From: Minisyncoccia bacterium
GTDB lineage: Bacteria > Patescibacteriota > Minisyncoccia > SW-4-49-11
Assembly (NCBI GenBank): GCA_044356325.1
Contig: JBIKWJ010000001.1
Coordinates: forward strand, 1 to 54,304
Length of the DNA stretch: 54,304 nucleotides
Direction of reading: 5' to 3'
The notes beneath the pieces are model-generated. The model did not search any database and had not been told where the DNA came from. It was given only the letters and a program-made list of their open reading frames with translations. Shown here one piece after another: positions 22,207 through 52,719 of the stretch. Position 1 is the first letter of the stretch. Each line of letters starts with the position of its first letter. A program made the position numbers and the translations under genes.

Positions 22207-22246
22207 GTTATCTACTCTTGACAAAATAGAAGAAATGTGCTATAGT
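22207..22246 (+). promoter_or_regulatory. Cassette promoter 1
   Basis: GTTAT-N6-TTGACA-N17-TATAGT with extended -10 TG. Confidence 0.8.
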
Positions 22247-22271
22247 TTTGAAGTTGTCAATGGATCAATCC

Positions 22272-22643
22272 ATGCGTCGTTCATTATCAGCCCTTCTCCT
22301 TCTCGCCTCCACAGCCCTCGGGCTCGTATCAGGAGCTCCGGTTTCTGCTCAACCGGCTTCTGGTCCAAATAATAGAGTGATTTATCCTGATGTCAGGGTA
22401 TGTGTAACAAAAAAGGATGCATCTTCCTGCTATCGAGTTCCATACAATGATCCTACTTTGATCAGCTTGATGCAAAGACATAAGCCTAAGGTAAAGGAGA
22501 TACATATCCCTTTATTAAGTGATGCCTATGAAAGTGGGATTCTCTTCTGGGGAAGTCTTGTTTTCTTGCTAGTAGCATCTAGTGGGATTGTAGCGTGGAT
22601 GATTTTAGACTGGAAGAAAATTCGTCCTACTAATCCTCACTAA
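22272..22643 (+). CDS. Small exported protein with C-terminal TM helix (cassette 1)
   Basis: Signal peptide MRRSLSALLLLASTALGLVSGAPVSA, Cys pair, own promoter and terminator. Confidence 0.8.
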   Translation: MRRSLSALLLLASTALGLVSGAPVSAQPASGPNNRVIYPDVRVCVTKKDASSCYRVPYNDPTLISLMQRHKPKVKEIHIPLLSDAYESGILFWGSLVFLLVASSGIVAWMILDWKKIRPTNPH

Positions 22644-22664
22644 TCTTATCAACTTACCCAGACT

Positions 22665-22693
22665 AAGACCGGCACCCAGTGTCCGGTCTTTTT
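22665..22693 (+). terminator. Intrinsic terminator of cassette 1
   Basis: AAGACCGG..CCGGTCTTTTT. Confidence 0.8.
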
Positions 22694-22715
22694 CATTTCC
22701 CTCTCAAAAGGTGAT

Positions 22716-22755
22716 GTCATCCACCCTTGACAAAATAGAAGAAATATGCTATAGT
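22716..22755 (+). promoter_or_regulatory. Cassette promoter 2
   Basis: GTCAT-N6-TTGACA-N17-TATAGT, nearly identical to promoter 1. Confidence 0.8.
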
Positions 22756-22791
22756 TTTATCGACCCTCAGAGGGATATCCCTCATCCGATC

Positions 22792-23040
22792 ATGAAACTT
22801 AGTTCTTTTCTTCTCCTTGCAACCACCGCCGCAGCAGCCATCGGGCTCGCTGCTCCAGTACAGGCAGGCGAGACCTCTCGTCTGTGTGAAATGGACAGAA
22901 ATGGCAGTCCTAAGAAATGCTTCTATGTCAAGAAGTCTTCTCTCCCGACAATAATCCGGGATTACTCCTGCGACAAGCCTAATGGGCTTCGTTGCCAACC
23001 TCTGTGGGGAGAGCCTATCTCCTTCCCAAGTATCGATTGA
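22792..23040 (+). CDS. Small secreted 4-Cys protein (cassette 2)
   Basis: Signal peptide MKLSSFLLLATTAAAAIGLAAPVQA; start chosen downstream of the promoter. Confidence 0.8.
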   Translation: MKLSSFLLLATTAAAAIGLAAPVQAGETSRLCEMDRNGSPKKCFYVKKSSLPTIIRDYSCDKPNGLRCQPLWGEPISFPSID

Positions 23041-23056
23041 TTAGACAGATCCTCTC

Positions 23057-23088
23057 GCCGGAACGCATTGCACGGTCCGGCTTTTTTT
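23057..23088 (+). terminator. Intrinsic terminator of cassette 2
   Basis: GCCGGA..TCCGGC followed by a T run. Confidence 0.8.
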
Positions 23089-23107
23089 ATTTACTTTTAA
23101 ATATAAT

Positions 23108-23147
23108 GTTATTAACTATTGATAAAATAGAAAAAGTATGGTATAGT
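23108..23147 (+). promoter_or_regulatory. Cassette promoter 3
   Basis: GTTAT-N6-TTGATA-N17-TATAGT. Confidence 0.75.
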
Positions 23148-23175
23148 TCTCTCGACCTCTAGAGGGATTGTCCTC

Positions 23176-23376
23176 ATGCTAAAATCAGCTCGTTATTTAA
23201 TTTTGGTTATCATTTCATTTCTGTTCTTTGCAAACTTGCCAGTCTATGCGAAAGGAAAAGAGGTTGTTATCCCTACCTTTCATCCACATGCTATATACTG
23301 GACGGCAGGTGTACTGATCCTGATTTTGTTTTGTGGTGTTTGTTATCTCGATAGAAAGGATGATGACTACTATTGA
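23176..23376 (+). CDS. Small membrane protein (cassette 3)
   Basis: Signal peptide ending PVYA plus TM helix; terminator AGCTGGA..TCCGGCTTTTT at 23391-23420. Confidence 0.75.
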   Translation: MLKSARYLILVIISFLFFANLPVYAKGKEVVIPTFHPHAIYWTAGVLILILFCGVCYLDRKDDDYY

Positions 23377-23419
23377 TCATCATCCCTTCAAGCTGGACGC
23401 ATTACGCGCTCCGGCTTTT

Positions 23420-24061
23420 TCATTTCAATTCAGGTAAATTATCCAGAGTATAACAATTCTCAATATTGAATTTTCCAGATTGTCTGCGTTCCAATTCTTC
23501 GAGATAAGCTCCTGTTCCGAGTTTAATACCAATATCATATCCAAGGGACCTGATATAAGTCCCACTAGCACAATATATGTCTAACGTGATGTAAGGATAG
23601 GTATATTCTAATATATCAATACGAGTAATAATCACATTACGCGCAGGTATATCTATATGTTCACCTTTACGGGCTAATTCATACATTTTCTTGCCATTGA
23701 TTTTGATAGCTGAATACATAGGTGGTATTTGCTGTATTTCCCCTATAAATTGCTTGACTACCAATTCTATTTGTTCTCGGGTAGGGATAATATCGGTACT
23801 ATACTCTTGTATGACTCCATCTTTATCATAAGTATCACTTATAAAGCCTAATTTTAGCTTTGTGCGGTATATTTTATCTTGTTTCATAAGAGTATTGCTT
23901 TTTTTGGTAGACTCACGTCCTACAAGCAGAATTAATACTCCAGTGGCAAAAGGGTCAAGAGTTCCCGCATGACCAATCTTTTTGATACCATAAAATCGGC
24001 GTAGCTTATTGACTACGGTGTGAGAAGTGATTCCAGCGGGCTTATTAATAGGAATAATCAT
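23420..24061 (-). CDS. truB: tRNA pseudouridine(55) synthase
   Basis: KIGHAGTLDPFATGVL, PPMYSAIK, GTYIRSL. Confidence 0.97.
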   Translation of the reverse strand: MIIPINKPAGITSHTVVNKLRRFYGIKKIGHAGTLDPFATGVLILLVGRESTKKSNTLMKQDKIYRTKLKLGFISDTYDKDGVIQEYSTDIIPTREQIELVVKQFIGEIQQIPPMYSAIKINGKKMYELARKGEHIDIPARNVIITRIDILEYTYPYITLDIYCASGTYIRSLGYDIGIKLGTGAYLEELERRQSGKFNIENCYTLDNLPELK

Positions 24062-24106: not shown

Positions 24107-24490
24107 TCCACCCCGTCAACTTTGTTGACACCCCTCAAGAGGGGCCGGTGGTGGATAGAGAATTCTAAAAGTACTCCACCCCATCCAGCGAAGCTGTCCA
24201 CCCCTCAAGAGGGGAATAATTTAATGCACGAGAAAATTCCCCTCTTGAGGGGTGTATTCCTCCTATACTTTTGTATGGGAGGGAGACGGGGTGGAGTATT
24301 TTTGCAACTTGCTCTCTGTCCCTCGCCTTTTAATCCTACTTGGGATGAGAGGGGTGAATTATTTTTTTCTATATCCACCCCCGCCCTACAGGCTTCCCCC
24401 TCCCTGCCTACCGCAGGCAGGCGAAGGGGGACAAAAATATATATCGCAAAACAACCTCCCCCACCCGTCTGCCGTAGGTAGAAAGGAGGA
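24107..24490. repeat. Large palindromic repeat cluster with a nested CCTGCCT..AGGCAGG element
   Basis: Three CCCCTC(AA/TT)GAGGGG units plus related double hairpins. Confidence 0.85.
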
Positions 24491-27912: not shown

Positions 27913-28174
27913 ACAAAATATGATTATGAATATGATATGGAATATAGATACCAATCATATACATACTTGTATAAACGCCATCTATGACCACATTGAAGAA
28001 GATTATATCATAGATTATATTATTTGTCAAGTTATAATAACACCAAAATTGAGTTAGGGGTATTCTGTCCTCCCTTGGAGGAGGTGGCACGAAGTGCCGG
28101 AGGTGGATTGTTTTTGTCCTCGTAGGGGTGACCTCTCAGTCGCCTTTTATATATAATAGTTACTAACTATTACT

Positions 28175-29146
28175 TCAATATTTGTAGAAACCTATAATTT
28201 GATCTTTATTGTGAGGATCACTTTCAGCAACCAATAGGGTTAATGTAGTCAATACTTGGGGAGTTATTTTAGAAGTATTCAATGTTTTGGTCTTATTCAA
28301 AAGCCAAATAAAAGCAAAAGCACCTGATCTTTTATTCCCATCATTCAAAGGATGGTTTTTAATAATAAAATATAATAGATGGGCAGCCTTCTCTTCAATA
28401 GAAGGATATATCTCTTCCCCAAAAGCAGATTGAAAAATATTACCAACAATTCCTGCTATAGCATTAGGTTGTTTTTCTTGTCCAAATAACTTGGTCGCCA
28501 TCTTCTTTTTATACAAATCTTGCTTTAGCTCAACCAAAGCTTGTATTAATTCATCAGCAGTGAATTCCACTTGAGACTTATTGAGACCTGATTGTGGCAA
28601 ATCAGATTTGTCATACGCATCAAGAGCAAACCAAGTCTCAGCAAAAAACTTAACCAATTCTAAAGCATCACTAGTCTTAACCTCACTATTTACAAGGATT
28701 AATGTCTTGACCGTCTCAATAGCCTTGAGAAACTCATCATAATTCTGGGCTAATACTTTTTTATTAATACTATATCCTTTCGTAATATACTGTTTTAATG
28801 TTTGTGTAGCCCATTGACGAAAGGTAACTGCCATAGAAGATTTTGTTCTATAACCAACTGCCAGAATAATGTCTAAATTATAAAAAGTCACATTTTTTGT
28901 TTGACTCTTACCTTTTAAAGCTCCGTGAGGAGTGGTCTGTGCAAATTTTGCACTAACCACTTTTGCATCCAATTCCCTATCTAAAAAAATATTTTTAATA
29001 TGTCTTGTTACCACTGATCTATCTACAGCAAAAAGTTCAGCAATCTGAGCTTGATTAGCCCAAATCGTATCCTGAGTCCAGTCACCCTTCAACTCAATAG
29101 CACCATTTTTTGCTTGATAAATAATTGTATGCGGTTTTGTATTCAT
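28175..29146 (-). CDS. RhuM-like domain plus Fic/Doc domain protein
   Basis: YNLDIILAVGYR, FRQWAT and HPLNDGNKR. Confidence 0.9.
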   Translation of the reverse strand: MNTKPHTIIYQAKNGAIELKGDWTQDTIWANQAQIAELFAVDRSVVTRHIKNIFLDRELDAKVVSAKFAQTTPHGALKGKSQTKNVTFYNLDIILAVGYRTKSSMAVTFRQWATQTLKQYITKGYSINKKVLAQNYDEFLKAIETVKTLILVNSEVKTSDALELVKFFAETWFALDAYDKSDLPQSGLNKSQVEFTADELIQALVELKQDLYKKKMATKLFGQEKQPNAIAGIVGNIFQSAFGEEIYPSIEEKAAHLLYFIIKNHPLNDGNKRSGAFAFIWLLNKTKTLNTSKITPQVLTTLTLLVAESDPHNKDQIIGFYKY

Positions 29147-29227
29147 AATAATTTATATATACTCCATTATACCATAATAATAGCCTAATTTATAATATAA
29201 ATTCATAGAGGAAGGTTTTGTATTTTA

Positions 29228-29351
29228 TCTTCCTTTGGAGGAGGATGACTGAGCTAATTACCCTCTTGAGGGGTGGCAGGCTTTGCCTGACGGGGTGGAA
29301 CCGTATTCTGTCCCCCTTTTAGGAGGGGGTGCCTGAAAGGCGGGGGTGGAT
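29228..29351. repeat. Palindromic repeat cluster
   Basis: CCCTCTTGAGGGG and CCCCCTTTTAGGAGGGGG double-hairpin units. Confidence 0.75.
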
Positions 29352-29367
29352 AAATTTCATAAAACTA

Positions 29368-29407
29368 GTTATAACCTATTGATAAAATTAGGGAAATGTG
29401 CTATTCT
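29368..29407 (+). promoter_or_regulatory. Cassette promoter 4
   Basis: GTTAT-N6-TTGATA-N17-TATTCT with extended -10 TG. Confidence 0.7.
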
Positions 29408-29433
29408 ATTTTTGTTCCCCATGAGCACCCATC

Positions 29434-29796
29434 ATGAGTACCAATTCCATTTCCAGAGGTCCCCTTGTCATATTCGGAGTTGGCTTTGGTTTAATATTGT
29501 TACTAATTCTTATATCAAATGGGTTACGCTTAACAACCTATGTCGCGAATGTTCCTTGCACAGTGATCAAGGCAGAGAATGTTAGAACAAGTGATGAAAG
29601 TAGTTCCTATAGGCTTTTCTGTAAGCAGGAAACATTCGATATCAAGGATGACTGGTGGACAGGCAGATTCACGAGCTCTGACATGTACGGAGCTATTTCT
29701 AATCTCTCCAAAGGATCGGAAATATCTCTAGATGTGTGGGGAATCCGTTTTGGACCCACCAGCGCCAAACGATCTGCAATCAATTGGAGACAGTAA
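29434..29796 (+). CDS. Small membrane-anchored protein (cassette 4)
   Basis: N-terminal TM, Cys pair; terminator ATCCCC..GGGGATTTTT at about 29816-29845. Confidence 0.75.
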   Translation: MSTNSISRGPLVIFGVGFGLILLLILISNGLRLTTYVANVPCTVIKAENVRTSDESSSYRLFCKQETFDIKDDWWTGRFTSSDMYGAISNLSKGSEISLDVWGIRFGPTSAKRSAINWRQ

Positions 29797-29846
29797 ACAG
29801 ATGAGTGTTTCTACCATCCCCCTAGCTATGCCGGGGGATTTTTTTA

Positions 29847-30086
29847 TTACTTAAACAATTTTGAAAACCAGCCGAATAAACTTGGGACTTTGCCCTTGCT
29901 CAGTTCTCTGGTATGTTTAAAAATAGGTTTATTATACCCTATATTGTATTTTATTTTTTGCTTAACTCGAGAAGGGCTCAAAGATTGTACTGCAGAAATT
30001 CCCGTAGCCTTCTTTATCCTTCGCTTCAACTTTGTCACTCCGAGCAATGTTTTGATGGATGGTTTGCGGTAACGGAAGAGTTTCAT
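29847..30086 (-). CDS. Small basic hypothetical protein downstream of hsdR
   Basis: 79-aa Lys/Arg-rich ORF co-oriented 15 bp after hsdR. Confidence 0.65.
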   Translation of the reverse strand: MKLFRYRKPSIKTLLGVTKLKRRIKKATGISAVQSLSPSRVKQKIKYNIGYNKPIFKHTRELSKGKVPSLFGWFSKLFK

Positions 30087-30101
30087 AATGATTATTTATC
30101 T

Positions 30102-33100
30102 TTATTGTGTTAATTCTTGAGCCAATAGTTCACTTTGCTCCAGAACTTTATCAGCTTCTATTCTTGCAAGATCAGGTGGATAACCATATCTCATGAGAAT
30201 TTTTTTGACCGTAAGACGGAGTTTAGCTCTGACATCTTCTCGTTTTTCCCAATCAACCGTAGCATTTTTGCGGATAATATCAACAATAACATGAATCAAC
30301 TCTTTCATTTTATGATCATCTAAAAATTTCGTAGAATCATTCTGAGCCAGTACACTATAAAAGGCATATTCTTCTGGAGTAAGTCCAATATCTTCCGCCT
30401 TTTTATCCTCCAATTTCATTGCCCGAGCAATTTCTGAAAGTTCCTGAATCACTTGAGCCGTATCAATTTGATTATTATGATACCTATTGATTACACTCTC
30501 AAGCATCTCAGAAAACTTTTTTCCTTGAGCCATATTTTTTCTTTTTCGTAATTTTACCTCATCATTCAAGAGCTTACGCAGAAGTTCAAAGGCAAGATTT
30601 TTTTGCTCCATATTTTTGACCTCAAGCAAAAATTCCTCTGACAAAATATCCAGTGTCGGAGTTTTCATCCCCGCAGCCTCGAACACATCCACTACTCCAT
30701 CACTCGCCAAAGCCTCCTCTACAATTTGTCTTACCGCCGTCTCTACCTGACTATCTGAAACACCCCCACTAGGAGTGAATTTATTAATACGAGCTTTAAT
30801 CGCTTGAAACAACGCAACTTCATCTCGTATTTGCTCAGCCTCAAAACTTGGAACCGCCATCGCAAATAACTTCGACAAAGCAGTCACTTCCGTCAAAAAT
30901 CTCTGCTTAAGTTTTTCATCATATAAAATAAAGTTTGTCGCCCCCAATAAAATATGTAATTTTTCACTACTCTCAGCCTGAAAATAATTTTTGTATTCAA
31001 AGCCATGGAACATTTGCTCCACAATCTCAAATTTTGTCTTCATACTCGCAATAACCTCAGCAATATCTAGAACCGCATCACCCTCACCACCACTTTGAAT
31101 ATACACACCCATCGCATTTCTCAGATCCTGACCAATACCAATATAATCCACAATCAATCCTCCTGGTTTATCCTTATATACCCGATTAACCCGAGCAATA
31201 GCCTGCATCAAATTAGCACCCTGCATCTTTTTATCAATATACATCGTATGCAAACACGGAACATCAAATCCCGTCAACCACATAGACTGAACAATCACCA
31301 TCTGAAGTGAATCCTGAGAATCCTTGAGCCTCAGAGCAAGCTTCTTTCTGTCCTCTTTATTCGTATGATGAGCTTGAAAGTCTTCAGGATCATCACTACT
31401 CGAAGTCATCACAATTTTAAGCTTCCCTTGCATCAATTCATCACTATGCCAATCAGGACGAAGAGCAATAATTTCTTGATATAACCAAACCGCAATTTGC
31501 CTTGTCATACATACCACCATAGCCTTCCCCTCAAAGGTTCTTTGCCTCGCCTCAAAATGCTCCACAATATCCTTAGCCAAATCCTTTAGTCTATCAGGAT
31601 GACCAACCACCGCATCAATTTGAGCATTTTTCTTTTTCGCCTTTTCCTTTTGCTCCTCAGTAGCACCAACAATTTCATCAATAGCATAATCAATTTTATT
31701 GACCAACTCCTTATTCAATTTAATTTTAACCAAACGAGACTCATAACTAATCGGCACCGTAGCCCCATCATCCACCGCCTGCTTAATATCATAAATATCA
31801 ATTTCATTCCCAAATACATTACGCGTTGACCTGTCCTCCTTCTCAATCGGAGTCCCCGTAAACCCAATAAAAGAAGCCCTCGGCAAAGCATCCCTCAAAT
31901 ATTTAGCATTCCCATATCGAATTTCAGACCCATCCACCGTTTCTACCTCTCGCCCCTTGAATCCATATTGACTACGATGAGCCTCATCCGCCACAACCAC
32001 AATATTCGAACGCTCAGATAAAGTTTCATACACATTCCCCTCACGAGGAGCAAATTTCTGAATAGTCGTAAAAATAATACCACCCCCCGCAACCTTGAGA
32101 AGCTCTTTCAAATGCTCACGACTTTCCGCCTGCACAGGAGTCTGTCTCAATAATTGCTTACAATTTCCAAAAGTCGTAAATAACTGATCATCAAGATCAT
32201 TCCTATCCGTCAAAATAACAATAGTCGGATTCTTCATCATCGGCTCCACCACAATTTGCCCCGTATAAAACACCATAGAAAGAGATTTTCCCGAACCCTG
32301 AGTATGCCAAATAACTCCAATTTTTCTATTACCCTCAGATTCATCAGTAGCCCTCAAGGTTTCCTTAACCGCTTTTTCCACTGCATAATATTGATGATAG
32401 GCTGCAATTTTCTTAATCTTCACCACCGATAATAACCCCGTTTTTTCATCCTTTTGCTCCTCTTGTTCAAAAACCGTATTATATCGAATCAATCGAAGTA
32501 ACACCTCAGGAACAAGCATTTTTTCAGCCATAATCTGCATTTCTGGCACAATACCATTCTCCTTTTTCTCAGGAGATTTCCAAGCCACAAATCGCTCAAA
32601 AGGAGCAGACACACTCGACATACGAGCATCAATTCCATCTGAGATAATACATAAGGCATTATAATAAAAAATACTCGGAACAGCTTTTTTATAATTCTGA
32701 ATTTGTGTAAAAGCCCTCTCCAAAGTCGCCTTTTCATCAGTAGCATTCTTCAACTCCACTACAACTAAAGGAAGCCCATTCACATAAATCACGACATCCA
32801 ATCGCTTCTCATTATTATGCTCTTTGATCACCAATTGATTCACCGCCCAAAAGCTATTATTTGAGACATTCTCCAAATCAAGAAGCTTAACATTGATACC
32901 CTTTGTAGCATCATCTTTGACATATTCAACCGTAATCCCATCAGTCAAATAAGTATGAAACTTTTCATTATTCGCCATCACATCAGAAGACCCAAGATTC
33001 ATAATATGTTGATACGCCTCATACCTTGCTGATTCAGGAATATCTGGATTCAATCTTTTGAGTGACTCCTTGAGATGATTTTCGAGTATGACACTATCAA

Positions 33101-33245
33101 ATCGTTCTCTTTGGGGATTATTAGAATACGGAGCCTGTCTGCCAGCCAGGCAGGCAATATCTGGACCATAGAAATACTCATAGCCTTGAGCTACAAGGAT
33201 ATCTATCAAGGTCTGTTCTATATGGAATTCGTTGAGGGTAGTCAT
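30102..33245 (-). CDS. hsdR: Type I restriction endonuclease subunit R
   Basis: NGLPLVVVELK, WHTQGSGKS, DEAHRSQY, QAIARVNR. Confidence 0.97.
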   Translation of the reverse strand: MTTLNEFHIEQTLIDILVAQGYEYFYGPDIACLAGRQAPYSNNPQRERFDSVILENHLKESLKRLNPDIPESARYEAYQHIMNLGSSDVMANNEKFHTYLTDGITVEYVKDDATKGINVKLLDLENVSNNSFWAVNQLVIKEHNNEKRLDVVIYVNGLPLVVVELKNATDEKATLERAFTQIQNYKKAVPSIFYYNALCIISDGIDARMSSVSAPFERFVAWKSPEKKENGIVPEMQIMAEKMLVPEVLLRLIRYNTVFEQEEQKDEKTGLLSVVKIKKIAAYHQYYAVEKAVKETLRATDESEGNRKIGVIWHTQGSGKSLSMVFYTGQIVVEPMMKNPTIVILTDRNDLDDQLFTTFGNCKQLLRQTPVQAESREHLKELLKVAGGGIIFTTIQKFAPREGNVYETLSERSNIVVVADEAHRSQYGFKGREVETVDGSEIRYGNAKYLRDALPRASFIGFTGTPIEKEDRSTRNVFGNEIDIYDIKQAVDDGATVPISYESRLVKIKLNKELVNKIDYAIDEIVGATEEQKEKAKKKNAQIDAVVGHPDRLKDLAKDIVEHFEARQRTFEGKAMVVCMTRQIAVWLYQEIIALRPDWHSDELMQGKLKIVMTSSSDDPEDFQAHHTNKEDRKKLALRLKDSQDSLQMVIVQSMWLTGFDVPCLHTMYIDKKMQGANLMQAIARVNRVYKDKPGGLIVDYIGIGQDLRNAMGVYIQSGGEGDAVLDIAEVIASMKTKFEIVEQMFHGFEYKNYFQAESSEKLHILLGATNFILYDEKLKQRFLTEVTALSKLFAMAVPSFEAEQIRDEVALFQAIKARINKFTPSGGVSDSQVETAVRQIVEEALASDGVVDVFEAAGMKTPTLDILSEEFLLEVKNMEQKNLAFELLRKLLNDEVKLRKRKNMAQGKKFSEMLESVINRYHNNQIDTAQVIQELSEIARAMKLEDKKAEDIGLTPEEYAFYSVLAQNDSTKFLDDHKMKELIHVIVDIIRKNATVDWEKREDVRAKLRLTVKKILMRYGYPPDLARIEADKVLEQSELLAQELTQ

Positions 33246-33256
33246 AAGTAGTGTAT

Positions 33257-34279
33257 CTAAGTAATATTATGATTCAAATTATACTTTTTAGCAAACTGTT
33301 CCCATAAATCATCAGTGATATTTAAAAACTCTTTTATATTTTCATCTCTTCTAAAAATTTTAACAATCTCTTTATTTGCAATAGTAGAATTATAAATACA
33401 ATAATTATCCATTGAACTGTGTAATATTTGTATAAAATGGTCTTTTGAAAAAAATAGATAATACTTTTGTAATTCTTTTATAAATTCCCCCATATCATTA
33501 TAAGACTTATCTTCATTTAAATATGCTAATACAATATTTAAATCTTGTGTTGTAACAATAGTACCTATTGTCTCATTCGCTACAGAGTCAAATATAATTA
33601 ACCTTTTCTGAGATTTTTCTTTAAAAGACAATACCCAATTATTCTCAATATTTAACCATTTTTCTTCATACTCAATACCCTCATATGTTTCTTGGATTTG
33701 TTGCAATATATAGTCACTAGGTATATTTAAACCTATATTTTTTTCAAATTCTTCAAAGTTTTCTATCACTTTAATATTTGGATGTTTTTGTAATGCTGTT
33801 TGAAATACCTTATCTTTTGTACATACAAAAACATACTTATCTGGTATAGTTTGTAAATATTCTAAAATTGTAAAATAGATATAAGTATCTTTAAACCCTT
33901 TTCCACCCGTTTGAAATGGTGGAAGTTCTTTAATTGCTAACTCTCTTATTTGATCCAATACTGAATGATTTTTTAAATGTATTATGGTATACTTTATATC
34001 TTCTTTGTTTTCTAATTCCGTAATATGTGCTTCATTATCAAAGTTTTCCGTATCTTCTTGATTGATATTTCTTAACCAATGAAAAGGATTCTTCAAAAAT
34101 AATCCCTTATTCTTTTCAAGCTCTTTTCTTTTTTGACATTTTAACTCTTCAATTACTAGGTCTGGTAAAATAATTTCTGCTATTTCTGCAAACTTTTGAA
34201 GCTCAACTCTACCCCCAAGAAAGGACTCGGGGTTAGTATCTTTAATAATATTAGTGTCAAAAATTACTTTTACTTTCAT
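33257..34279 (-). CDS. PIN-like domain protein (DUF4935-like)
   Basis: VIFDTN, VIEEL, PPF..KGFKDTYIY, TKD acidic pattern. Confidence 0.8.
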   Translation of the reverse strand: MKVKVIFDTNIIKDTNPESFLGGRVELQKFAEIAEIILPDLVIEELKCQKRKELEKNKGLFLKNPFHWLRNINQEDTENFDNEAHITELENKEDIKYTIIHLKNHSVLDQIRELAIKELPPFQTGGKGFKDTYIYFTILEYLQTIPDKYVFVCTKDKVFQTALQKHPNIKVIENFEEFEKNIGLNIPSDYILQQIQETYEGIEYEEKWLNIENNWVLSFKEKSQKRLIIFDSVANETIGTIVTTQDLNIVLAYLNEDKSYNDMGEFIKELQKYYLFFSKDHFIQILHSSMDNYCIYNSTIANKEIVKIFRRDENIKEFLNITDDLWEQFAKKYNLNHNIT

Positions 34280-35022: not shown

Positions 35023-35031
35023 AAAATTGTT

Positions 35032-36357: not shown

Positions 36358-36358
36358 A

Positions 36359-39783: not shown

Positions 39784-39800
39784 AACATTGTAGTGACAGA

Positions 39801-40270: not shown

Positions 40271-40356
40271 CCCCTCAATTTATCTCCATCCCTACGGGAG
40301 GTAAACCCGTAGGTGGAGAGGGGAATTTAAAAAGCCACCTTTTGGGGTGGCTTGGG
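40270..40356. repeat. Composite repeat with nested insert and terminator-like hairpin
   Basis: Closely matches about 42441-42530; nested part also at about 43687-43741. Confidence 0.85.
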
Positions 40357-40439
40357 GGGAATTATATTTTTATGTTATATGTATTTGATATTCTTGGAAA
40401 AATTATATATAATTACCAAGGTTATCTCCAAATTATCCC

Positions 40440-40724
40440 ATGGATCCACAAATTGCTAACAAACACCGGTCTGCTGTGTTGTTGATAAGAGAAATTATTA
40501 TTTGTGTTAGAAAAAATCAGAAAACAATAAGTAAAGCTCAGTTGATAGATCTTTTAGCAGAGCACCTAGAGACAGAAGAATATTTAAATTACACACAAAA
40601 TATTCTTCTAGTAAATTGTAGAGACAATGATATCCTCACAATAGATGGACAAACTAATAATGTGAGATTTCCAAAACGAAGAGATGGAACCGGGAATGTC
40701 ATAGAGTATCATTATATAAAATAA
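40440..40724 (+). CDS. Hypothetical protein (cassette 6)
   Basis: Promoter GTTAT-N6-TTGATA-N17-TATAAT at 40374-40413; terminator GAGCTCGGG..CTCGAGCTTTTT at about 40744-40772. Confidence 0.7.
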   Translation: MDPQIANKHRSAVLLIREIIICVRKNQKTISKAQLIDLLAEHLETEEYLNYTQNILLVNCRDNDILTIDGQTNNVRFPKRRDGTGNVIEYHYIK

Positions 40725-40823
40725 AGTATCATTTTGAGTAAATGAGCTCGGGTATAAAACTCGAGCTTTTTTATAATCAAAAAAGCCACTCTCTGGGAGG
40801 GTGGCTTGGGAGAAGAAAGGGTC

Positions 40824-41141
40824 TCAGATTTGCTCTTTGGGAACAAGTCCAAGCCTCTGAACCTCGGATTTGAGATGACAGACTTCGGGTCGAGGCTCAT
40901 CCTTCGGCCAAGTGTCTCCGAGGGAGACAAAGCCTGCCCAGGGTTGTTCCACATACTCCCCACAATTAATCGGTCGAGGGTTGGCTCCATCCCTGATAGC
41001 CGTCCGCATGGCCTCCAAACGGGATTCGGCTCGAGTGGCACGCTCAGAGAGCGGGCATATATACAGGTATAAAGTTAGAGCGGATGTCGCCATCACAGCT
41101 CCTACTATGGTGTAGAGAAACACAGGCGTACTAATGGTCAT
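40824..41141 (-). CDS. Membrane-anchored Cys-containing hypothetical protein (cassette 7)
   Basis: Visibly GC-richer ORF with N-terminal TM; TTGACA promoter at 41211; terminator at about 40779-40807; alternative GTG start at 41150. Confidence 0.7.
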   Translation of the reverse strand: MTISTPVFLYTIVGAVMATSALTLYLYICPLSERATRAESRLEAMRTAIRDGANPRPINCGEYVEQPWAGFVSLGDTWPKDEPRPEVCHLKSEVQRLGLVPKEQI

Positions 41142-41351
41142 GATGTACACCCCCCTTAGGGGGAGAGATAAATGGTCGTGTTATATATAGCATATTTTTA
41201 CATTTTGTCAATAGTAGTGGTCAACTTTTAATACAAAAAAGAGCAATCCACCCTCCCCTTCGGGTACTCCCTCCTAAGGGAGACAGAAGTTCAAAGGAGA
41301 GGGTAAAACAAATACAGGCGACTGGGAGGTCGCCCCTACGAAGAAATATAA

Positions 41352-42212
41352 TCACTCTAAATCTTTTACTCTATTCAATAAATCTTGTACTGAACTTGTG
41401 TCTAATAGACTGAAGGCGAAGAGTTTTTTGCCTAAATCTTTGAGCGAGGCGCCTAGATGATAGATTTCTTTTTGGTCTATTATTAGGAATCTATCATGGC
41501 TTTTGTTGAATTTCTTTAGCTTAAAGTTTCCATATTGCTGATTGACTTTCTGTATATCTAGCTCTAATTCCTTACTTATTGGATGGGTTAATATAAGGGC
41601 TTTTACTTTTGGGTTCTTTTTGGCTAGATGTATTAGGGTGCTCTCGTCTATATAATTGTCTATAAGGATTATATGTGTCTTGGCTTTGCGAATTATCTTT
41701 GAGAATAATTCATAGGCATCGAATACTTGTCCTTCGAAGAATATGCCTTGGGTGGGGATGGTATTGGTATGTATTTGCAAGTCTATTTGATTTACTTTTT
41801 CACTCAAAGATTGAATATTATCTTCTATTCTGTTTATCCGATTATTCAGTGCATAGCCTTTGAGTAAATAGTCTCGTAAAATATTGGTTGCCCAGATGCG
41901 AAATTGTGTACCTTGTTTTGATTTTACTCGGTACCCTACTGATATTATAACATCTAGATTGTAATACTCCACTTGGCGCTCAACCTTTCTGCCTCCTTCA
42001 TTTTGAACTGTCGCAAATTTTGCGACAGTTGCTATATTATCTAGTTCTCCTTCCGAAAAAACATTATTGATGTGTTTACCAAGAGTTTTTACATCTCTAC
42101 CAAAAAGCAAAGCCATTTGCTGTCTGTTTAACCAAACAGTTTCGTGTTTAAGCATTACTTCTATATGCTCATCTAAATCATCTGGTCTATATAAAATAAT
42201 TTCATTTTTCAT
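41352..42212 (-). CDS. RhuM-like domain protein with C-terminal PLD-like nuclease domain
   Basis: YNLDVIISVGYRV, FRIWAT; LIDNYID and HDRFLIID..GASLKDLG. Confidence 0.85.
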   Translation of the reverse strand: MKNEIILYRPDDLDEHIEVMLKHETVWLNRQQMALLFGRDVKTLGKHINNVFSEGELDNIATVAKFATVQNEGGRKVERQVEYYNLDVIISVGYRVKSKQGTQFRIWATNILRDYLLKGYALNNRINRIEDNIQSLSEKVNQIDLQIHTNTIPTQGIFFEGQVFDAYELFSKIIRKAKTHIILIDNYIDESTLIHLAKKNPKVKALILTHPISKELELDIQKVNQQYGNFKLKKFNKSHDRFLIIDQKEIYHLGASLKDLGKKLFAFSLLDTSSVQDLLNRVKDLE

Positions 42213-42349
42213 ATTTTAATTTAATGTATGGTTTTATTATAGAATATAACTAAAGAATAGTGAATTATTATTTTCCATAGTGGATAAGTTTATATTTATT
42301 TATAAGTTTGTATTATAGCATATTTGAGGTTGAATTGGGAGCCGAACAC

Positions 42350-42530
42350 ATCCACCTCCGGCACTTCGTGACACCTCCTCCGAAGGAGGACAAGGAGGCA
42401 AGTTGCAAAACACTTCCACCCCGTCCAGCGAAGCTGTCCACCCCTCAATTTATCTCCACCCCTACGGGAGGTAAACCCGTAGGGAGAGAGGGGAATTTAA
42501 AAAGACCACCCTCTGGGAGAGTGGCTTGGG
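42350..42530. repeat. Palindromic repeat cluster with nested insert
   Basis: CCACCTCC..CCTCCGAAGGAGG unit and interrupted CCCCTCAA/GAGGGG unit. Confidence 0.8.
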
Positions 42531-43517
42531 TTATTCTATGTCTACGATGTATCTCATCTTATTCATTATACTCCTCAAAATCGTAATACATTCCTCAGCT
42601 GTATTACATTGCATAAGTTGAGAGCGGATATCGCTGGCTCCTGGAAAATTATTGAGATATATTTTGAAGCATTTTTTCATCACTGCAAAGTTTTTCTCTT
42701 GTCCCCAAGTTTGGTCAAAAAGTTGTATATGTTCGATGAGTTTTTGCACCTTTATCTCTGTACTGAGTGTATCGTGGTCTATATTGGGATTGAATATCCA
42801 AGGATTATAGAATACTCCCCTTCCAATCATTATCCCATCTACACCATATTGATTGGCGATATCAAGTCCCTGCTGATAAGACAGAATATCTCCATTGCCA
42901 ATAATGAGGGTATGAGGGCTTAGCTCGTCTCTTAGTTTTACTGCCTTTCCAATTTCATCCCAATGAGTAGGATAATCGGATAATTCTTTTACGGTACGGC
43001 CATGTATGGTGAGGGCGTCTAGATTAGATTGTAAGAGATGTCCAATCCATTCTTCGGTTTGAATTTCAGTAAAGCCAATGCGGGTTTTGACACTGACTGG
43101 TATATCCCCCGCTCCCTCTTTGGCGGCTTGTATAATATCTGAGGCGAGTTGGGGATTTTTGATAAGTGCGGAGCAAGCTCCTTGTTTGATTACTTTTTTG
43201 ACTGGGCAGCCCATATTGATATCTAGGCCAGCAAAACCTTGTTCTCTGGCATAAACTCCCGCCTGATAATAATGCTCTGGTGTAATACCCCAAATTTGGG
43301 CTACGAGAGGCTGTTCCTCTGGGGTATATTGTAATCGATGTATGACTTTTGATCTTCCAATTTCAGAGGCGAGTCCCTCTACGCTGGTAAATTCTGTCAC
43401 CATAACATCAGGACGTCCACAAGAGCTAATAATACGCCGAAAAACTGTATCAGTTACCTCCTCCATAGGAGCTAATACAAAAAAGGGTTTAGATAATGAT
43501 TGCCAAAATGATTGCAT
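42531..43517 (-). CDS. dus: tRNA-dihydrouridine synthase
   Basis: LAPME, DINMGCP, SVKTRIG, IHGRT, GNGDI, MIGRG. Confidence 0.95.
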   Translation of the reverse strand: MQSFWQSLSKPFFVLAPMEEVTDTVFRRIISSCGRPDVMVTEFTSVEGLASEIGRSKVIHRLQYTPEEQPLVAQIWGITPEHYYQAGVYAREQGFAGLDINMGCPVKKVIKQGACSALIKNPQLASDIIQAAKEGAGDIPVSVKTRIGFTEIQTEEWIGHLLQSNLDALTIHGRTVKELSDYPTHWDEIGKAVKLRDELSPHTLIIGNGDILSYQQGLDIANQYGVDGIMIGRGVFYNPWIFNPNIDHDTLSTEIKVQKLIEHIQLFDQTWGQEKNFAVMKKCFKIYLNNFPGASDIRSQLMQCNTAEECITILRSIMNKMRYIVDIE

Positions 43518-43596
43518 AGGGTTATTAAATATACGTTTATTATAACATGTGTTGATGATTTATAAATACACATTATACATTAAGGGTTATTATTTT

Positions 43597-43741
43597 GTCC
43601 CCCTTCGCCTGCCTACCGCAGGCAGGCAAAGGAGGACAGAAACTCAGGTTGCAAAATACTCCACCCCGTCAGGCGAAGCCTGCCACCCCTCAATTTATCT
43701 CCACCCCTACGGGAGATAAACCCGTAGGGAGAGAGGGGAAT
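43597..43741. repeat. Palindromic repeat cluster with both nested element types
   Basis: GCCTGCCTACCGCAGGCAGGC and CTACGGG..CCCGTAG inserts inside hairpin loops. Confidence 0.8.
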
Positions 43742-43838
43742 TTTTAGCACTATCCCAAAATAGCAATAGTAATGGTTATTGTAAATTAACAATAAAAGAA
43801 AAACCCCACCTTGACGACGGGGGTTTTGATAGAAGAGT

Positions 43839-44045
43839 TCATTTGAAAAAGAGAGCTATAATTATCACAACAAGTAAGTAGTTGATGGGAATTGTCGGTA
43901 TAATTCCAATTAGTGTCAGTATAATTTCAATTAGGTAGACACTTAGGAAGACTATAATGAATAACAAGATACCCCAGATAATTTTAGACGCTATATCTCT
44001 TTTCAAGACGGTTTTCGCTTGACTGAGAAGGTTTCTTAGTGACAT
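43839..44045 (-). CDS. Small hydrophobic membrane protein (cassette 8)
   Basis: Promoter GTTAT-N6-TTGACA-N17-TATAGT at 44110-44071; terminator at about 43799-43827. Confidence 0.7.
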   Translation of the reverse strand: MSLRNLLSQAKTVLKRDIASKIIWGILLFIIVFLSVYLIEIILTLIGIIPTIPINYLLVVIIIALFFK

Positions 44046-44117
44046 GTTCAAGCTGTCGGAGGTCGAAAAAACTATAGCATAAAGAGCCTAAAATGTCAAT
44101 ATCTAATAACGTTATCC

Positions 44118-49700: not shown

Positions 49701-49847
49701 ATATATAGTAGCATTTATTTTATTTACTGTATATAGTATATCGTAAATTATATGATTAGTAAAATATTTGTATGAGATGAGGAGATCGTAGACAAAACAG
49801 ATTACTATACATTACTAACCTAGGGTCCCTAACCTGTCACAAAAAGT

Positions 49848-50023
49848 GTCCTCCTTTGCCTGCCTGGGGTAGGCAGGGAGGAGGTGGCCGTCAGGCCGGA
49901 GGTGGATAGAGTTCAAGTCTTTATTTTATCCACCCCCGCCTTTCAGGCTTCCCCCTCCTAAGGGGGACAAAAGTAATAATTCTTTTGTTGCGACAATATA
50001 TGCGACTATAAGGTCGCCCCTAC
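49848..50023. repeat. Palindromic repeat cluster plus GTAG-type REP
   Basis: Double-hairpin units with nested CCTGCCT-GGGGT-AGGCAGG; GGTCGCCCCTAC near 50012. Confidence 0.8.
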
Positions 50024-50073
50024 ACAAATCTCATCTTGTCTAAGATGTATCTCATCTTATTCAATATTTTATA

Positions 50074-50490
50074 TTAACCTAATTCTTTGAAAAAGCTATC
50101 CAAGATACCGTCTATATCATCAATAGTTTTATATTCTTGAACTTGCAAATTTGCATTACCTCCAATCATCGGGGACAATCTTCTCCCTTCTTGCTCACGG
50201 AAAAGGCATAATATAGGTTTTTTACCCTCCATTTGCCCAATTTCATACCCTACTCCCAAACTTGGAGTAGTAACCTCAGCTACTACAATATCTGATTCAT
50301 TGAGCCAATTCATATCCCGCCGATAAATATCAATATCACTAGAATCTTGTTCACCAAAAGTAGTTAATTCACTATCTCCAATATGCTCCGTTAATACCGT
50401 ACCATAGGCTTCAAGTTGTTGTATAATTTGAGCATAGAGATCCTTATCATCTCGCCCTCCTCTAATTGACCCTGCAAAATATATTTTCAT
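50074..50490 (-). CDS. Nucleoside 2-deoxyribosyltransferase / Rcl-like hydrolase
   Basis: IYFAGSIRGGR, VLTEH, AEVTTPSLGVGYEIG. Confidence 0.92.
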   Translation of the reverse strand: MKIYFAGSIRGGRDDKDLYAQIIQQLEAYGTVLTEHIGDSELTTFGEQDSSDIDIYRRDMNWLNESDIVVAEVTTPSLGVGYEIGQMEGKKPILCLFREQEGRRLSPMIGGNANLQVQEYKTIDDIDGILDSFFKELG

Positions 50491-50619
50491 ATTATGTTAT
50501 ATTATTATGTATATATTATATCATAAGTTAAATACGTTATTTATCAAATATAGCTCATATAAGGATATCCACATATACAATTATTAAAGGAAAGTATATA
50601 ATATAAATGATCTTATTAT

Positions 50620-51378
50620 ATGTTTTTAATTAATAATATGTTTGATATTCTATTTGCAAGAACATTCTTTATCGTAGGAGGTATGTTAGTCATAACCGCC
50701 ATTACTGCTCTTATCAACAAAGGATTTGAGACATCATTGGAGTATTGGGGAAGTATTATTGCATTGTTTGGATTATTGATTGCCCTTATGTTTTATGCCA
50801 ATGTTTTTCCTACCAATTTGATTCTTGTGGGACTTTTTTCTGCTATTATGGGCTGGATCATTGGCCCTACAATATCGGCATTAGGTCAACGATATAAGTT
50901 TAGAAAACATCTCAAGAATAATGGAGTTGTGATTGAAAAAGGTCGTAATATCCCTAAAGAATATCAAGAAGAATTTGCGACATCTTTTGATAATGAAGAA
51001 TATCAATCAGAATGGAATAATACTGTCTTTCAAGCACTTTTTGCCACAGCAATAGCAGTATTTGCAACTGGAGGTACAGTTTTCTTAACCAATATTGACT
51101 TTAGTTTTTTGAATGGATTTTTATTTATTTCATTAATTATTTTAGTTATTATGGGGCTATTAAATGTATTCATATTTCGCTCGCATATGTTTACCTTTAT
51201 TAGTTCTTATTTTGGGGCTGTTATTTTTACCCTATATCTCTTATTCGATTTTAATAGACTAGAAGCAATGGCAGGAGATGAGTCATGGGGAACTGCTATT
51301 GATATCTCAGTTAATCTTTATTTAGACATTATTAATTTATTTTTGGATTTACTCACTATACTTTCCGAGTTCAATTAA
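50620..51378 (+). CDS. Bax inhibitor-1/YccA family membrane protein
   Basis: Seven-TM pattern, LYLDIINLFL. Confidence 0.9.
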   Translation: MFLINNMFDILFARTFFIVGGMLVITAITALINKGFETSLEYWGSIIALFGLLIALMFYANVFPTNLILVGLFSAIMGWIIGPTISALGQRYKFRKHLKNNGVVIEKGRNIPKEYQEEFATSFDNEEYQSEWNNTVFQALFATAIAVFATGGTVFLTNIDFSFLNGFLFISLIILVIMGLLNVFIFRSHMFTFISSYFGAVIFTLYLLFDFNRLEAMAGDESWGTAIDISVNLYLDIINLFLDLLTILSEFN

Positions 51379-51396
51379 AATACTAAAGTAGTTTTT

Positions 51397-52101
51397 ATGA
51401 CCATTATACAAAACTCCCTTCGCCAATATGCTTCTCCCGAGAGGAAGGTTAATGTAGAGAGATTTTTTAAAACAGGAAAAGGGCAATATGGAGAGGGCGA
51501 TGAGTTCATTGGGGTAAGTAATCCCGATGTCAGAAAAGTCGCGAGGCAGTACAAAGATATATCATTAGATGAGATAGAGTTACTACTTCATTCCCCTATT
51601 CATGAAGATAGATTATGTGCTCTCATAATACTTGTCAATCAGAACACAAAAGCAAATCCAGAAGCTCAAAAAACTATCGTTAATCTGTATATTGTCAATT
51701 TGCATTATATCAATAATTGGGATCTCGTGGACCTCTCAGCTCATTATATACTCGGTAAAGCTATATATGATGGAATTCAGTCCAAAGATATACTCGATAC
51801 CCTCGCTCCCTCCCCTATTCTCTGGGAGCGAAGAGTTAGCATTATATCTACCTTTTATTTTATCCATAAAGGGAATATTGATGATACCTTGAGATTATCT
51901 AAAGTTTTACTCACAGATAAGGAAGATTTAATGCATAAAGCCGTAGGTTGGGCTTTGAGAGAAGCTTGGAAAAAAGACGCCCCTCGAGTAGAGGAGTTCC
52001 TCCAAAAGAATTATTCTCATATTCCTCGCACCACACTCCGCTATGCTATTGAGCGTATAGAAGAGAATAAGCGTAAGAGATTTTTGAAGGGGATGTTTTA
52101 A
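51397..52101 (+). CDS. DNA alkylation repair protein (AlkD-like)
   Basis: FFKTGKGQYGEGD, NNWDLVD, KAVGWALRE, RTTLRYAIE. Confidence 0.92.
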   Translation: MTIIQNSLRQYASPERKVNVERFFKTGKGQYGEGDEFIGVSNPDVRKVARQYKDISLDEIELLLHSPIHEDRLCALIILVNQNTKANPEAQKTIVNLYIVNLHYINNWDLVDLSAHYILGKAIYDGIQSKDILDTLAPSPILWERRVSIISTFYFIHKGNIDDTLRLSKVLLTDKEDLMHKAVGWALREAWKKDAPRVEEFLQKNYSHIPRTTLRYAIERIEENKRKRFLKGMF

Positions 52102-52169
52102 ACTAGTAAAAACTCCCTACAGACAGTATCTGTAAGGAGCTTTGTTGAAAGTTGTGAGATGCTTTTTAT

Positions 52170-52604
52170 CTACTTATTTTTGATTCTCAGCCACCGATCC
52201 CTGATTTTATTATATAGATCTTGTATGTCTTCAGAGAATACGCTCGCTGAGCATACGAAGATATAGAAATAGATGATACTCAGATATCGGTGAGTATAGA
52301 GAGTTATGCTCATCTCTTGATAACCAATTTTCTCAAAGAGAATTGACATTAGCCGAAGCATAATCGGTAGAGATAGCCAAAAACTCAATATCCAAAAACC
52401 TATGAGAGAATTTCTCCATAATAGTTGAGTACGTATTCCACGTACAGGTTTTATGATATTTGCATAGTAGCCAGATATATACCATGCATAGAGAGCCAGT
52501 GGGGAGGCAGGAATTCCTACCCCAAAGGCAACGGTATCCCAGCCTGCCAATAGGCAGTATAGTGCTGAGAAGACAGCACCCAAAAGCATGAAGATGAATT
52601 CCAT
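52170..52604 (-). CDS. Hypothetical multi-TM protein (cassette 9)
   Basis: Promoter GTTAT-N6-TTGACA-N17-TAATTT at 52673-52634; hairpin at about 52108-52143. Confidence 0.7.
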   Translation of the reverse strand: MEFIFMLLGAVFSALYCLLAGWDTVAFGVGIPASPLALYAWYISGYYANIIKPVRGIRTQLLWRNSLIGFWILSFWLSLPIMLRLMSILFEKIGYQEMSITLYTHRYLSIIYFYIFVCSASVFSEDIQDLYNKIRDRWLRIKNK

Positions 52605-52719
52605 GTTAAAAATGTGCGATTGTGAACTAGATCAAATTAGCATATAGAGTATGTTTTGTCAATATTACATAACTTCTTTACTAGAATTTTTTCTTGACTA
52701 GCTTTCAAGCTAGTACTTC

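Follow-up and report, generated by a model that had tools for sequence, protein, structure and literature searches.

How do bacteria with tiny genomes gain single new genes, and what supplies such genes with signals for their expression? This question is raised by nine short open reading frames (ORFs) within a 54,304-nt stretch of DNA, in the following called the window, i.e., positions 1-54304 of contig C1 of the 818,776-bp genome G000 (15 contigs; guanine-cytosine (GC) content of 35%). Bacteria of the Candidate Phyla Radiation (CPR)/Patescibacteria are largely uncultured, and to our knowledge almost nothing is known of CPR promoters or of the ways in which genomes this small acquire and express new genes. 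A preliminary description of the window proposed that the nine ORFs, starting at 22272, 22792, 23176, 29434 and 40440 (+) and at 40034, 41141, 44045 and 52604 (-), form a co-regulated and rapidly turning-over set of autonomous gene cassettes, plausibly host-directed effectors of an episymbiont. Given the results below, we consider it probable that they are part of about 30 'moron-like' accessory expression cassettes, which are distributed genome-wide in a freshwater Paceibacteria genus and share a portable promoter module.

The phage 'moron' concept is said to go back to Hendrix and Juhala. According to PMC4378225, a moron consists of one coding region, equipped with a promoter and a terminator of its own, between genes that are adjacent in relatives; its composition deviates from that of its neighbours and its mechanism of acquisition is unknown. 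For the cassettes studied here, a unit would consist of a sigma-70/sigma-A-type promoter (TTGACAAAAT..AAATRTGnTATAGT), often with GTTAT 6 bp upstream, a gap of 25-41 nt, one compositionally foreign and mostly small ORF, and an intrinsic terminator. Units would occupy intergenic slots between conserved genes or a defence island, and the module would give newly acquired genes strong autonomous expression. Their turnover would proceed by homologous recombination through conserved flanks and through repeated promoter, signal-peptide or terminator modules, with a further contribution of illegitimate insertion and deletion.

The window stretch is contained in lake-water metagenome runs, and its close relatives are metagenome-assembled genomes of Paceibacteria/Parcubacteria (CPR), some of them from rivers and a creek. 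We compared G000 with 11 other species of the same genus (G001-G011), with 5 other genomes of the family and with 44 genomes of other families in the class. The whole genome of G008 was rebuilt from its pieces and aligned with G000, of which 80% can be aligned at a median identity of 92.4%. As references we used 581 conserved genes for composition, 115 small conserved genes for hydrophobic segments, and 20 simulated second-order Markov genomes for chance expectations. Stretches without contig cover were not counted as evidence. DNA contigs of run X3, i.e., an independent assembly, reproduce the window at 0 differences, which argues against a chimeric assembly.

Anatomy and products of the nine units

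The observation that each of the nine ORFs comes with its own promoter, a short leader and a terminator is confirmed for 9/9 and extends genome-wide. Upstream of all nine starts we find TTGAYA-N16/17-TAnnnT, with 25-41 nt between the -10 box and the ATG. The spacer between the -35 and -10 boxes is 17 nt long in 8/9 cassettes and 16 nt at 41141 (-), while TGn precedes the -10 box in 6/9, which thus have an extended -10. In 9/9 cassettes the stop codon is followed by a GC-rich hairpin and then a T-run. That is, as far as can be read from sequence, all nine are monocistronic units in which a single coding region is combined with its own promoter and its own terminator, as in the moron definition, and the earlier view of them as autonomous holds.

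Three units lie in tandem between an xer-like gene and truB. Cassette 1 (22207-22693, +) starts with GTTAT at 22207-22211, which overlaps the end of the xer-like gene, followed by the -35 box (22218-22223) and a TGc-TATAGT -10 box (22241-22246). Its ORF (22272-22643) encodes 123 amino acids (aa) with a predicted signal peptide and a C-terminal transmembrane segment, and the terminator at 22667-22688 is a hairpin with subsequent T-run. Cassette 2 (22716-23088, +) shows GTCAT at 22716-22720, a -35 box at 22727-22732, a -10 box at 22750-22755, an ORF for a putative secreted protein of 82 aa with 4 Cys (22792-23040) and a terminator at 23057-23088. In cassette 3 (23108-23420, +), GTTAT at 23108-23112 is followed by a TTGATA -35 box (23119-23124), a -10 box (23142-23147), an ORF of 66 aa (23176-23376; signal peptide and transmembrane segment) and a terminator (23392-23420) that directly adjoins the end of truB. 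The three copies are alike over about 80 nt of promoter and leader and also in their terminators, and the promoter region of cassette 2 duplicates the last ~17 nt of the xer-like gene.

Four units are housed in a variable defence island of 14.5 kb (28050-42590). Cassette 29434 (29368-29846, +) comprises GTTAT (29368-29372), a TTGATA -35 box (29379-29384), a TATTCT -10 box (29402-29407), an ORF of 120 aa with N-terminal membrane anchor (29434-29796) and a terminator (29818-29846). Cassette 40034 (39751-40088, -) is without GTYAT; its -35 box is located at 40088-40083, its ORF (40034-39801) encodes 77 aa without hydrophobic segment, and the terminator spans 39782-39751. For cassette 40440 (40374-40775, +) we find GTTAT at 40374-40378, a TTGATA -35 box at 40385-40390, a TATAAT -10 box at 40408-40413, an AT-rich ORF of 94 aa, again without hydrophobic segment (40440-40724), and a terminator at 40744-40775. 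Cassette 41141 (40779-41211, -), also without GTYAT, has its -35 box at 41211-41206 and a TGc-TATATA -10 box behind the 16-nt spacer; the ORF (41141-40824; 105 aa, GC 0.53) combines a transmembrane anchor with a domain that carries 2 invariant Cys, and the terminator is found at 40807-40779.

The two remaining units are separate. Cassette 44045 (43794-44110, -) occupies the slot between ksgA and dusB and consists of GTTAT (44110-44106), a -35 box (44099-44094), a TGc-TATAGT -10 box, an ORF of 68 aa with 2 transmembrane segments (44045-43839) and a terminator (43823-43794). In cassette 52604 (52108-52673, -), GTTAT (52673-52669), the -35 box (52662-52657) and a TGc-TAATTT -10 box precede the ORF of a putative multi-pass membrane protein of 144 aa (52604-52170), which is followed by a terminator (52140-52113; hairpin, then T-run).

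The ORFs were initially described as partly GC-richer than core genes and as mostly encoding exported or membrane peptides, and both statements are borne out. The GC content of 6/9 ORFs is at or above the 97th percentile of the conserved genes (40440 and 44045 are not GC-rich), and the codon score of 8/9 is at or below the 4th percentile, i.e., the composition of the units differs from that of neighbouring genes as it does for morons. A hydrophobic segment of signal-peptide or transmembrane type is present in 7/9 ORFs vs. 31/115 small core genes (Fisher test, p=0.0036).

Searches for known families gave few matches. Pfam yielded only sub-threshold matches for all nine ORFs and PADLOC nothing above threshold for the six ORFs submitted, while the NCBIfam run covered flanking genes only. 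ORF 29434 matches PHROG 301 'secreted protein' (E=1.6e-7) as well as DUF1523-like phage/viral clusters (Atlas); for the other 8/9 window ORFs and the relative P0022, PHROGs gave nothing significant (one weak match, E=6e-4). The family of ORF 41141, with transmembrane anchor, has 18 database homologs at 35-96% identity, and an alignment of 11 of its sequences shows 22 invariant columns including two invariant Cys. An AlphaFold2 prediction from these 11 sequences was too poor for a fold search (mean predicted local distance difference test (pLDDT) 59, predicted template modelling score (pTM) 0.29). Both the 41141 homologs with their invariant Cys and the PHROG 301 match argue that the ORFs are real genes. 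Three database homologs were found for ORF 22792, with relatives in G005, G006 and G008, and N-terminally related ORFs for 23176 in G008 and G004; Atlas scores for 52604 stayed below 0.9 and are leads only. No paralogy among the nine ORFs was detected by tblastn, the sole genomic paralog being C2:27327-26914 for 52604 (34% identity). ORF1 and ORF2, i.e., those of cassettes 1 and 2, align at E=3.1 only and have a common C-x(9-10)-C..PT[LI]I pattern, such that they may be very distant paralogs. Finally, an Rfam search of the window with gathering thresholds returned five transfer RNAs (tRNAs) only.

The promoter module and its GTTAT block

In the preliminary description, seven of the nine promoters carried GTYAT exactly 6 bp before the -35 box, while the promoters of rpoB, tRNA-Thr and tRNA-Gly did not. 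We find the same: GTYAT is present in this position in 7/9 cassettes (22272, 22792, 23176, 29434 and 40440 on the forward, 44045 and 52604 on the reverse strand) and missing at 40034 (-) and 41141 (-). The window holds 8 copies of GTYAT-N6-TTGAYA, i.e., the seven cassette copies stand, but an eighth at 28041-28025 (-), upstream of a DEAD-box helicase gene, had been overlooked. Window positions 1-22196 contain 0 matches, which implies that the tRNA promoters and any rpoB promoters are without GTYAT; in the same register, TAGAG is found at the tRNA-Thr and GGAAT at the tRNA-Gly promoter.

The scan of the whole genome that had been suggested as a check gives a clear excess. GTYAT-N6-TTGAYA occurs 14 times vs. 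a mean of 3.85 (maximum 8) in the 20 Markov genomes, and with N17-TAnnnT added, 9 copies face a simulated mean of 0.10, i.e., a 90-fold excess. Also the spacing is specific: GTTAT-Nk-TTGACA is maximal at k=6 with 9 copies vs. 0-3 at 13 other spacings tested, and G008 shows the same maximum (5 copies vs. 0-3). These counts are not fully independent because the three tandem promoters are mutual duplicates. Among strong promoters of conserved genes, only 1/99 carries GTYAT, such that the motif is not as common before housekeeping genes, and G at -11 is found in 20/99, which is the background rate. For TGnTATAGT promoters selected by their -35 and -10 boxes only, the respective numbers are 5/14 and 10/14. 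Among relatives, GTTAT-N6-TTGACAAA is found in 11/11 genus genomes (40 copies vs. 3 control hits) and in 3/5 other genomes of the family, but in only 2/44 genomes of other families; the expected presence of the motif in related CPR genomes thus holds within genus and family and not much beyond.

The best test of GTTAT is the promoter of the CshA-like DEAD-box helicase, because this gene is a conserved core gene (ORF 27912-26653, -). Its promoter (28002-28041, -) consists of GTTAT (28041-28037), the -35 box (28030-28025) and a TGa-TATAAT -10 box whose last position is 28002. The 9/9 orthologous helicase promoters extracted all share an unchanged GTTAT-N6-TTGACAAAT, while the N6 occurs in 5 versions, the spacer between -35 and -10 is variable and the sequence further upstream is unrelated. 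In G009, a GTTAT copy adjoins the helicase match; G005 and G006 gave no match. When comparing G010 with G000, homology breaks exactly at the helicase -35 box, and GTTAT is nonetheless present in G010. This phylogenetic footprint indicates that GTTAT is under purifying selection in a core-gene promoter. Judged by these data, GTTAT-N6 before the -35 box is a genuine promoter element of this lineage, which is enriched on accessory units and not exclusive to them. Its binding partner might be RNA polymerase, much as for an UP element, or else some activator.

GTYAT belongs to a longer module, GTTAT-N6-TTGACAAAAT..TRTGnTATAGT, of which the genome has 33 copies (nhmmer with a profile built from 12 cassette-type promoters, E<0.01). 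The core of the module, TTGACAAAAT-N-AAATRTGnTATAGT, is a near-consensus promoter with a TRTG extended -10 and an A-tract after the -35 box. TGn is carried by 14/14 TTGAYA-N17-TATAGT sites of the genome. The strict core TTGAYAAAA-N11-TGNTATAGT is found 11 times in the genome vs. 0 in the simulated ones; it is present in 11/11 genus genomes (1-5 copies each), in 1/5 other family genomes and in 0/44 genomes of other families. GTYAT is carried by 11/33 module promoters and G at -11 by 26/33, both of which are partly circular numbers because the profile seeds included GTYAT promoters. As a signature of cassettes, as which it had been introduced, GTYAT does not hold: it is invariant before the core helicase in 9/9 and is found on just this third of the module promoters.

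The first ORFs behind the 33 copies resemble those of the window. They mostly show GC values of 0.40-0.63 and low codon scores, and for about 26/33 a hairpin with T-run follows the first ORF, as judged by reading. For the 31 module ORFs of at least 39 aa, the median GC is 0.435 vs. 0.342 in the 581 conserved genes (Mann-Whitney U test, p=3e-13) and the median codon score is 0.034 vs. 0.276 (p=2e-18). For 9/10 module ORFs tested outside the window, including proteins of 290-431 aa, no Pfam family was found. At C1:138990-139039, upstream of a different ORF, we find the promoter and leader of cassette 1 once more, at 90% identity; going by this alignment, part of the promoter sharing comes from duplication of the promoter-leader module.

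Module promoters are clustered upstream of GC-rich ORFs without Pfam family at C8:100000-136000 and C1:217500-220100. Among the encoded proteins, two of 394 and 133 aa are secreted (GC 0.57-0.58); another one comprises 308 aa (GC 0.63), and its large family, which has no name, counts 705 representative clusters. Both regions are probably larger accessory islands of the same unit type. In addition, C8:50753-51082 (-) and C8:51759-52166 (-) encode paralogous small lipoproteins with the lipobox LLLGVSGC, one of them behind a GTTAT promoter; the pair is part of a 2.5-kb segment that is missing from G008.

We have to weigh these data against a dedicated regulon, i.e., the idea that a transcription factor recognises GTYAT as one half of its operator and thereby controls the host-directed effector genes of an episymbiont as a set. 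Such an operator would be in accordance with the specific position of GTTAT and its conservation under selection, with its rarity before conserved genes and with the 7/9 exported or membrane products. Furthermore, GTTAT/ATAAC inverted repeats are formed by some copies (28041, 29368, 44110). However, these repeats differ in spacing and order at all three promoters, and a dimeric operator built from such palindromes was rejected given three different arrangements in three promoters. GTTAT is a fixed part of a housekeeping helicase promoter and missing from 22/33 module promoters, 2/9 ORFs are without the motif, 2/9 products are cytoplasmic, and no regulator was found. Concerning effectors, nothing ties the products to a host, while 4/9 cassettes sit among phage-defence candidate genes. 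We thus regard a dedicated regulon as doubtful.

A further-reaching reading joins two ideas. ORFs would be swapped into 'expression slots' by a promoter-supplied gene capture unlike that of integrons, and GTTAT would be a dedicated activator site or a lineage-specific contact of RNA polymerase, by which the accessory set and the CshA helicase come under one control. A second upstream block, CTCCTCATCTCATAC (see below), would then be the same-register mark of housekeeping promoters. We hold this combination to be unlikely.

Gain, loss and exchange of units between relatives

When the genomes are aligned, units are seen to be gained, lost and exchanged between close relatives, with homology breakpoints that hug the ORF. 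The rapid turnover that had been proposed is therefore well supported: G010 is without all nine window cassettes, and each ORF is found in 0-5/11 genus genomes. On the DNA level, the numbers are 0 for 52604 and 44045, 1 for 29434, 1-2 for 41141, 2 for 40034 and 5 for 40440. The corresponding gaps in G010 measure 13-15 bp between xer and truB, 60 bp between ksgA and dusB and 7 bp between the flanks of 52604, whose slot is also an empty 7-bp gap in G004; the defence island is missing from G010 with the entire block 28030-42588. That is, like morons, the units are inserted between genes that are adjacent in relatives. Genome-wide, 28/33 module ORFs are aligned to less than 50% in G008, vs. 112/712 core-like and 58/189 small genes.

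Slots differ in their content. Across ten genomes, the xer-truB slot contains 0-3 cassettes from a handful of small secreted-protein families, and 10/14 of the respective promoters carry GTYAT. Nine genomes were compared at the ksgA-dusB slot, which is either empty or filled with a small hydrophobic ORF that changes from genome to genome. Here, G000 and G008 agree in the promoter, in the leader as far as the ATG and in the terminator, CCCCGTCGTCAAGGYGGGG, whereas the ORFs of G000 (68 aa) and G008 (76 aa) give no BLASTP alignment. In G008, cassette 1 runs from its start directly into ORF2, as it does in an independent DNA contig of run X9, i.e., the mature part of ORF1 is missing in both. Among the joints in the contigs, the one at 22285->22827 (side 96) was counted as a real rearrangement. 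For 11 cases compared between G000 and G008, homology ends between -36 and +69 nt relative to the ATG in 9/11 (the others at -134 and -37) and resumes 1-103 nt past the stop codon in 6/11. Since the frame is kept with different ORFs and the module recurs elsewhere, the regulatory module and its cargo appear to have separate histories.

Several points weigh against our explanation and have to be set beside this evidence. A scan of viral contigs for TTGACAAAAT-N10-TGNTATAGT matched at least 114 contigs, which makes the core pattern a general strong-promoter consensus that is uninformative on origin. Conserved genes are also found behind module promoters, namely a GT4 glycosyltransferase and the helicase, and the GTYAT share within the class suffers from the circularity noted above. 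The gene caller was crude and the 'core-like' status was defined by G008 alone. Some cases of a kept promoter with a different ORF are paralogous alignments, e.g., C8:108090 and C8:135011 (2/11). Inspection of the 52101/52720 and xer/truB junctions revealed no target-site duplications, and recombination as the route of exchange is what we infer from the alignments. Promoter use, strength and termination are likewise all deduced from the DNA. Contigs of RNA library X24 include fragments touching 22774-22829 and several core genes; being contigs only, they cannot show transcription, its starts or its ends.

The defence island itself combines a type I restriction-modification (R-M) system (hsdR, 30102-33245) with the PADLOC candidates PDC-S23 (28175-29146, with a Fic/Doc-like C-terminus), PDC-S57 (38993-39595) and PDC-S05 (41352-42212). 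In DNA contigs of run X9, other sequence replaces the R-M block, and the long X9 contig without this block was counted as a real rearrangement. Many further 'joints' in X9 and X13 at 24.2-24.5, 28.1, 29.3 and 41.3 kb lie within hairpin repeats with sides of 22-43 nt and were not counted as such. Beside hsdR, the stretch 29814-30100, with a 79-aa ORF (30086-29847, -), is 87-93% identical in G003, G008, G010 and G011; its surroundings differ between genomes, and in G010 it is located on another contig.

Both ends of the island are bracketed by GC-rich hairpin repeats, at which metagenome contigs break. These are multi-hairpin repeats of the repetitive extragenic palindromic (REP)/miniature inverted-repeat transposable element (MITE) type with units ending in GGGGTGGA. 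Window sites are 24403-24436, 29266-29299, 40269-40328, 42402-42498, 43590-43744 and 49847-49877. The repeat has 46 loci in G000, nearly all intergenic, 34 of which are unaligned in G008. Most genus genomes show about 30 matches, with few in G001, G003, G007 and G010, and there is no Rfam match.

The second upstream module, CTCCTCATCTCATAC, is found on housekeeping promoters, where 6 bp separate its end from the -35 box. It is located at 1154-1168 (+), before tRNA-Glu/Arg, and at 49784-49770 (-) in the window as well as at 15 more loci of G000, e.g., C2:14650, C6:38537 and C11:7620. Genes behind it include the tRNA-Glu operon, S16, S1, RuvB, Gmk, Cmk and HrcA, and 12/12 downstream ORFs are conserved in G008. 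CTCCTCATCTCATAC forms the terminal part of a repeat of 175-383 bp, which is missing from the same sites in G008. Of 8 clean cases, homology resumes 1-7 nt past the box in 7 and at +23 nt in the remaining one. Exact copies number 11 in G000 vs. 0-1 per other genus genome. Judged by its distribution, the repeat seems to be a MITE-like element of recent origin that inserts directly before -35 boxes.

Other origins and comparison with known systems

The units could also be remnants of phages or mobile elements, i.e., true prophage morons whose promoter is a phage promoter type. Their architecture equals the moron definition as stated in PMC4378225, ORF 29434 has its match to PHROG 301 and DUF1523-like viral clusters, and the core promoter pattern is widespread in viral contigs. 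On the other hand, the PHROG search was without significant match for 8/9 ORFs, GTYAT is present in 0/83 viral-contig matches examined, no phage structural or integrase genes flank the slots, and the module also drives a core gene. This makes a phage origin very unlikely.

The position of the tandem trio directly after a tyrosine recombinase gene, with 0-3 cassettes there and breakpoints near the leader and past the hairpin, brings to mind an integron-like system, in which an Xer-like tyrosine recombinase inserts and excises cassettes of ORF and hairpin downstream of a resident promoter. Yet the recombinase is best described as XerC/XerD (~168 bits), while the integron-integrase model TIGR02249 scores 86 bits vs. 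a cut-off of 265, and the gene is intact beside empty slots in G010 and G001. Besides, 6/9 cassettes are located far from the recombinase, and none is without a promoter of its own. As hairpins we find short GC stems with T-runs, unrelated in sequence between cassettes, and no common attC-like boxes were seen by eye (no attC model was applied). An integron-like mechanism is thus highly improbable.

The chance that we deal with an artefact, i.e., with spurious ORFs behind sequences that resemble promoters only by accident in AT-rich DNA, or with chimeric assemblies, is negligible: promoter-like sites in the AT-rich region are hardly in excess (79 vs. 71.5 in shuffles), several ORFs are without homologs and contigs C3 and C10 look like contaminants, but the full motif is found 90-fold over expectation and conserved across genomes, independent DNA contigs reproduce the window exactly, and ORF families are conserved with invariant Cys. 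No part of C3 (6518 bp, GC 0.59) or C10 (3777 bp, GC 0.66) can be aligned to G008, and their GC values differ strongly from the 35% of the genome; both probably entered the bin as contaminants.

If the 'moron-like' cassettes are what we take them for, about 30 autonomous units make up much of the gene-content difference between relatives that are ~92% identical in aligned DNA. Most units of the window encode envelope or secreted proteins, and several are part of a defence island. GTTAT offers a testable, lineage-specific third promoter element, conserved in the promoter of a core gene and over-represented before accessory genes. The kept frame with exchanged ORF is relevant to a long-standing question, namely how genomes come by morons and other single-gene insertions; should the module prove strong and portable as a promoter, work on CPR organisms would gain a practical genetic part. 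In the open-access papers searched, judged by title and start of the abstract, we came across neither a CPR promoter motif nor such cassettes.

With regard to its promoter, the module has counterparts in other bacteria. The TRTG extended -10 is described for Firmicutes, and UP elements are presented as alternating A- and T-tracts without defined length, in PMC12641261. As in the UP element outlined there, we observe a third block upstream of the -35 box in the register of the proximal UP subsite (about -46 to -42). In contrast to it, GTTAT is a discrete 5-mer at one spacing and not an A/T tract, and it is limited to one family-level lineage and a subset of promoters.

On the level of genome organisation, flexible genomic islands or 'dark matter islands' are described, in the accessible portions of PMC4158269 and PMC13385816, as variable hotspots of small, fast-evolving membrane or secreted proteins. 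The cassettes are alike in narrow distribution, fast turnover and many small membrane or secreted products, and differ by their shared promoter module and the frame-preserving exchange of ORFs, which are absent from these portions. With integron cassettes they have in common variable ORFs at a fixed site, one array next to a tyrosine recombinase gene and a hairpin after the ORF. Unlike those, each unit has its own promoter, the hairpins are those of ordinary intrinsic terminators, the recombinase is not of the IntI type and most units are dispersed.

The closest resemblance in architecture is to morons, which, as far as the moron source goes, are equally provided with their own promoter and terminator, inserted between genes adjacent in relatives and deviant in composition. 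The cassettes found here, however, do not reside in a phage, being located in a CPR chromosome between xer, truB, ksgA, dusB and defence genes. Furthermore, there are about 30 of them per 0.82-Mb genome, and many of them are served by one portable, lineage-specific promoter module within a frame that can outlast the exchange of its ORF.

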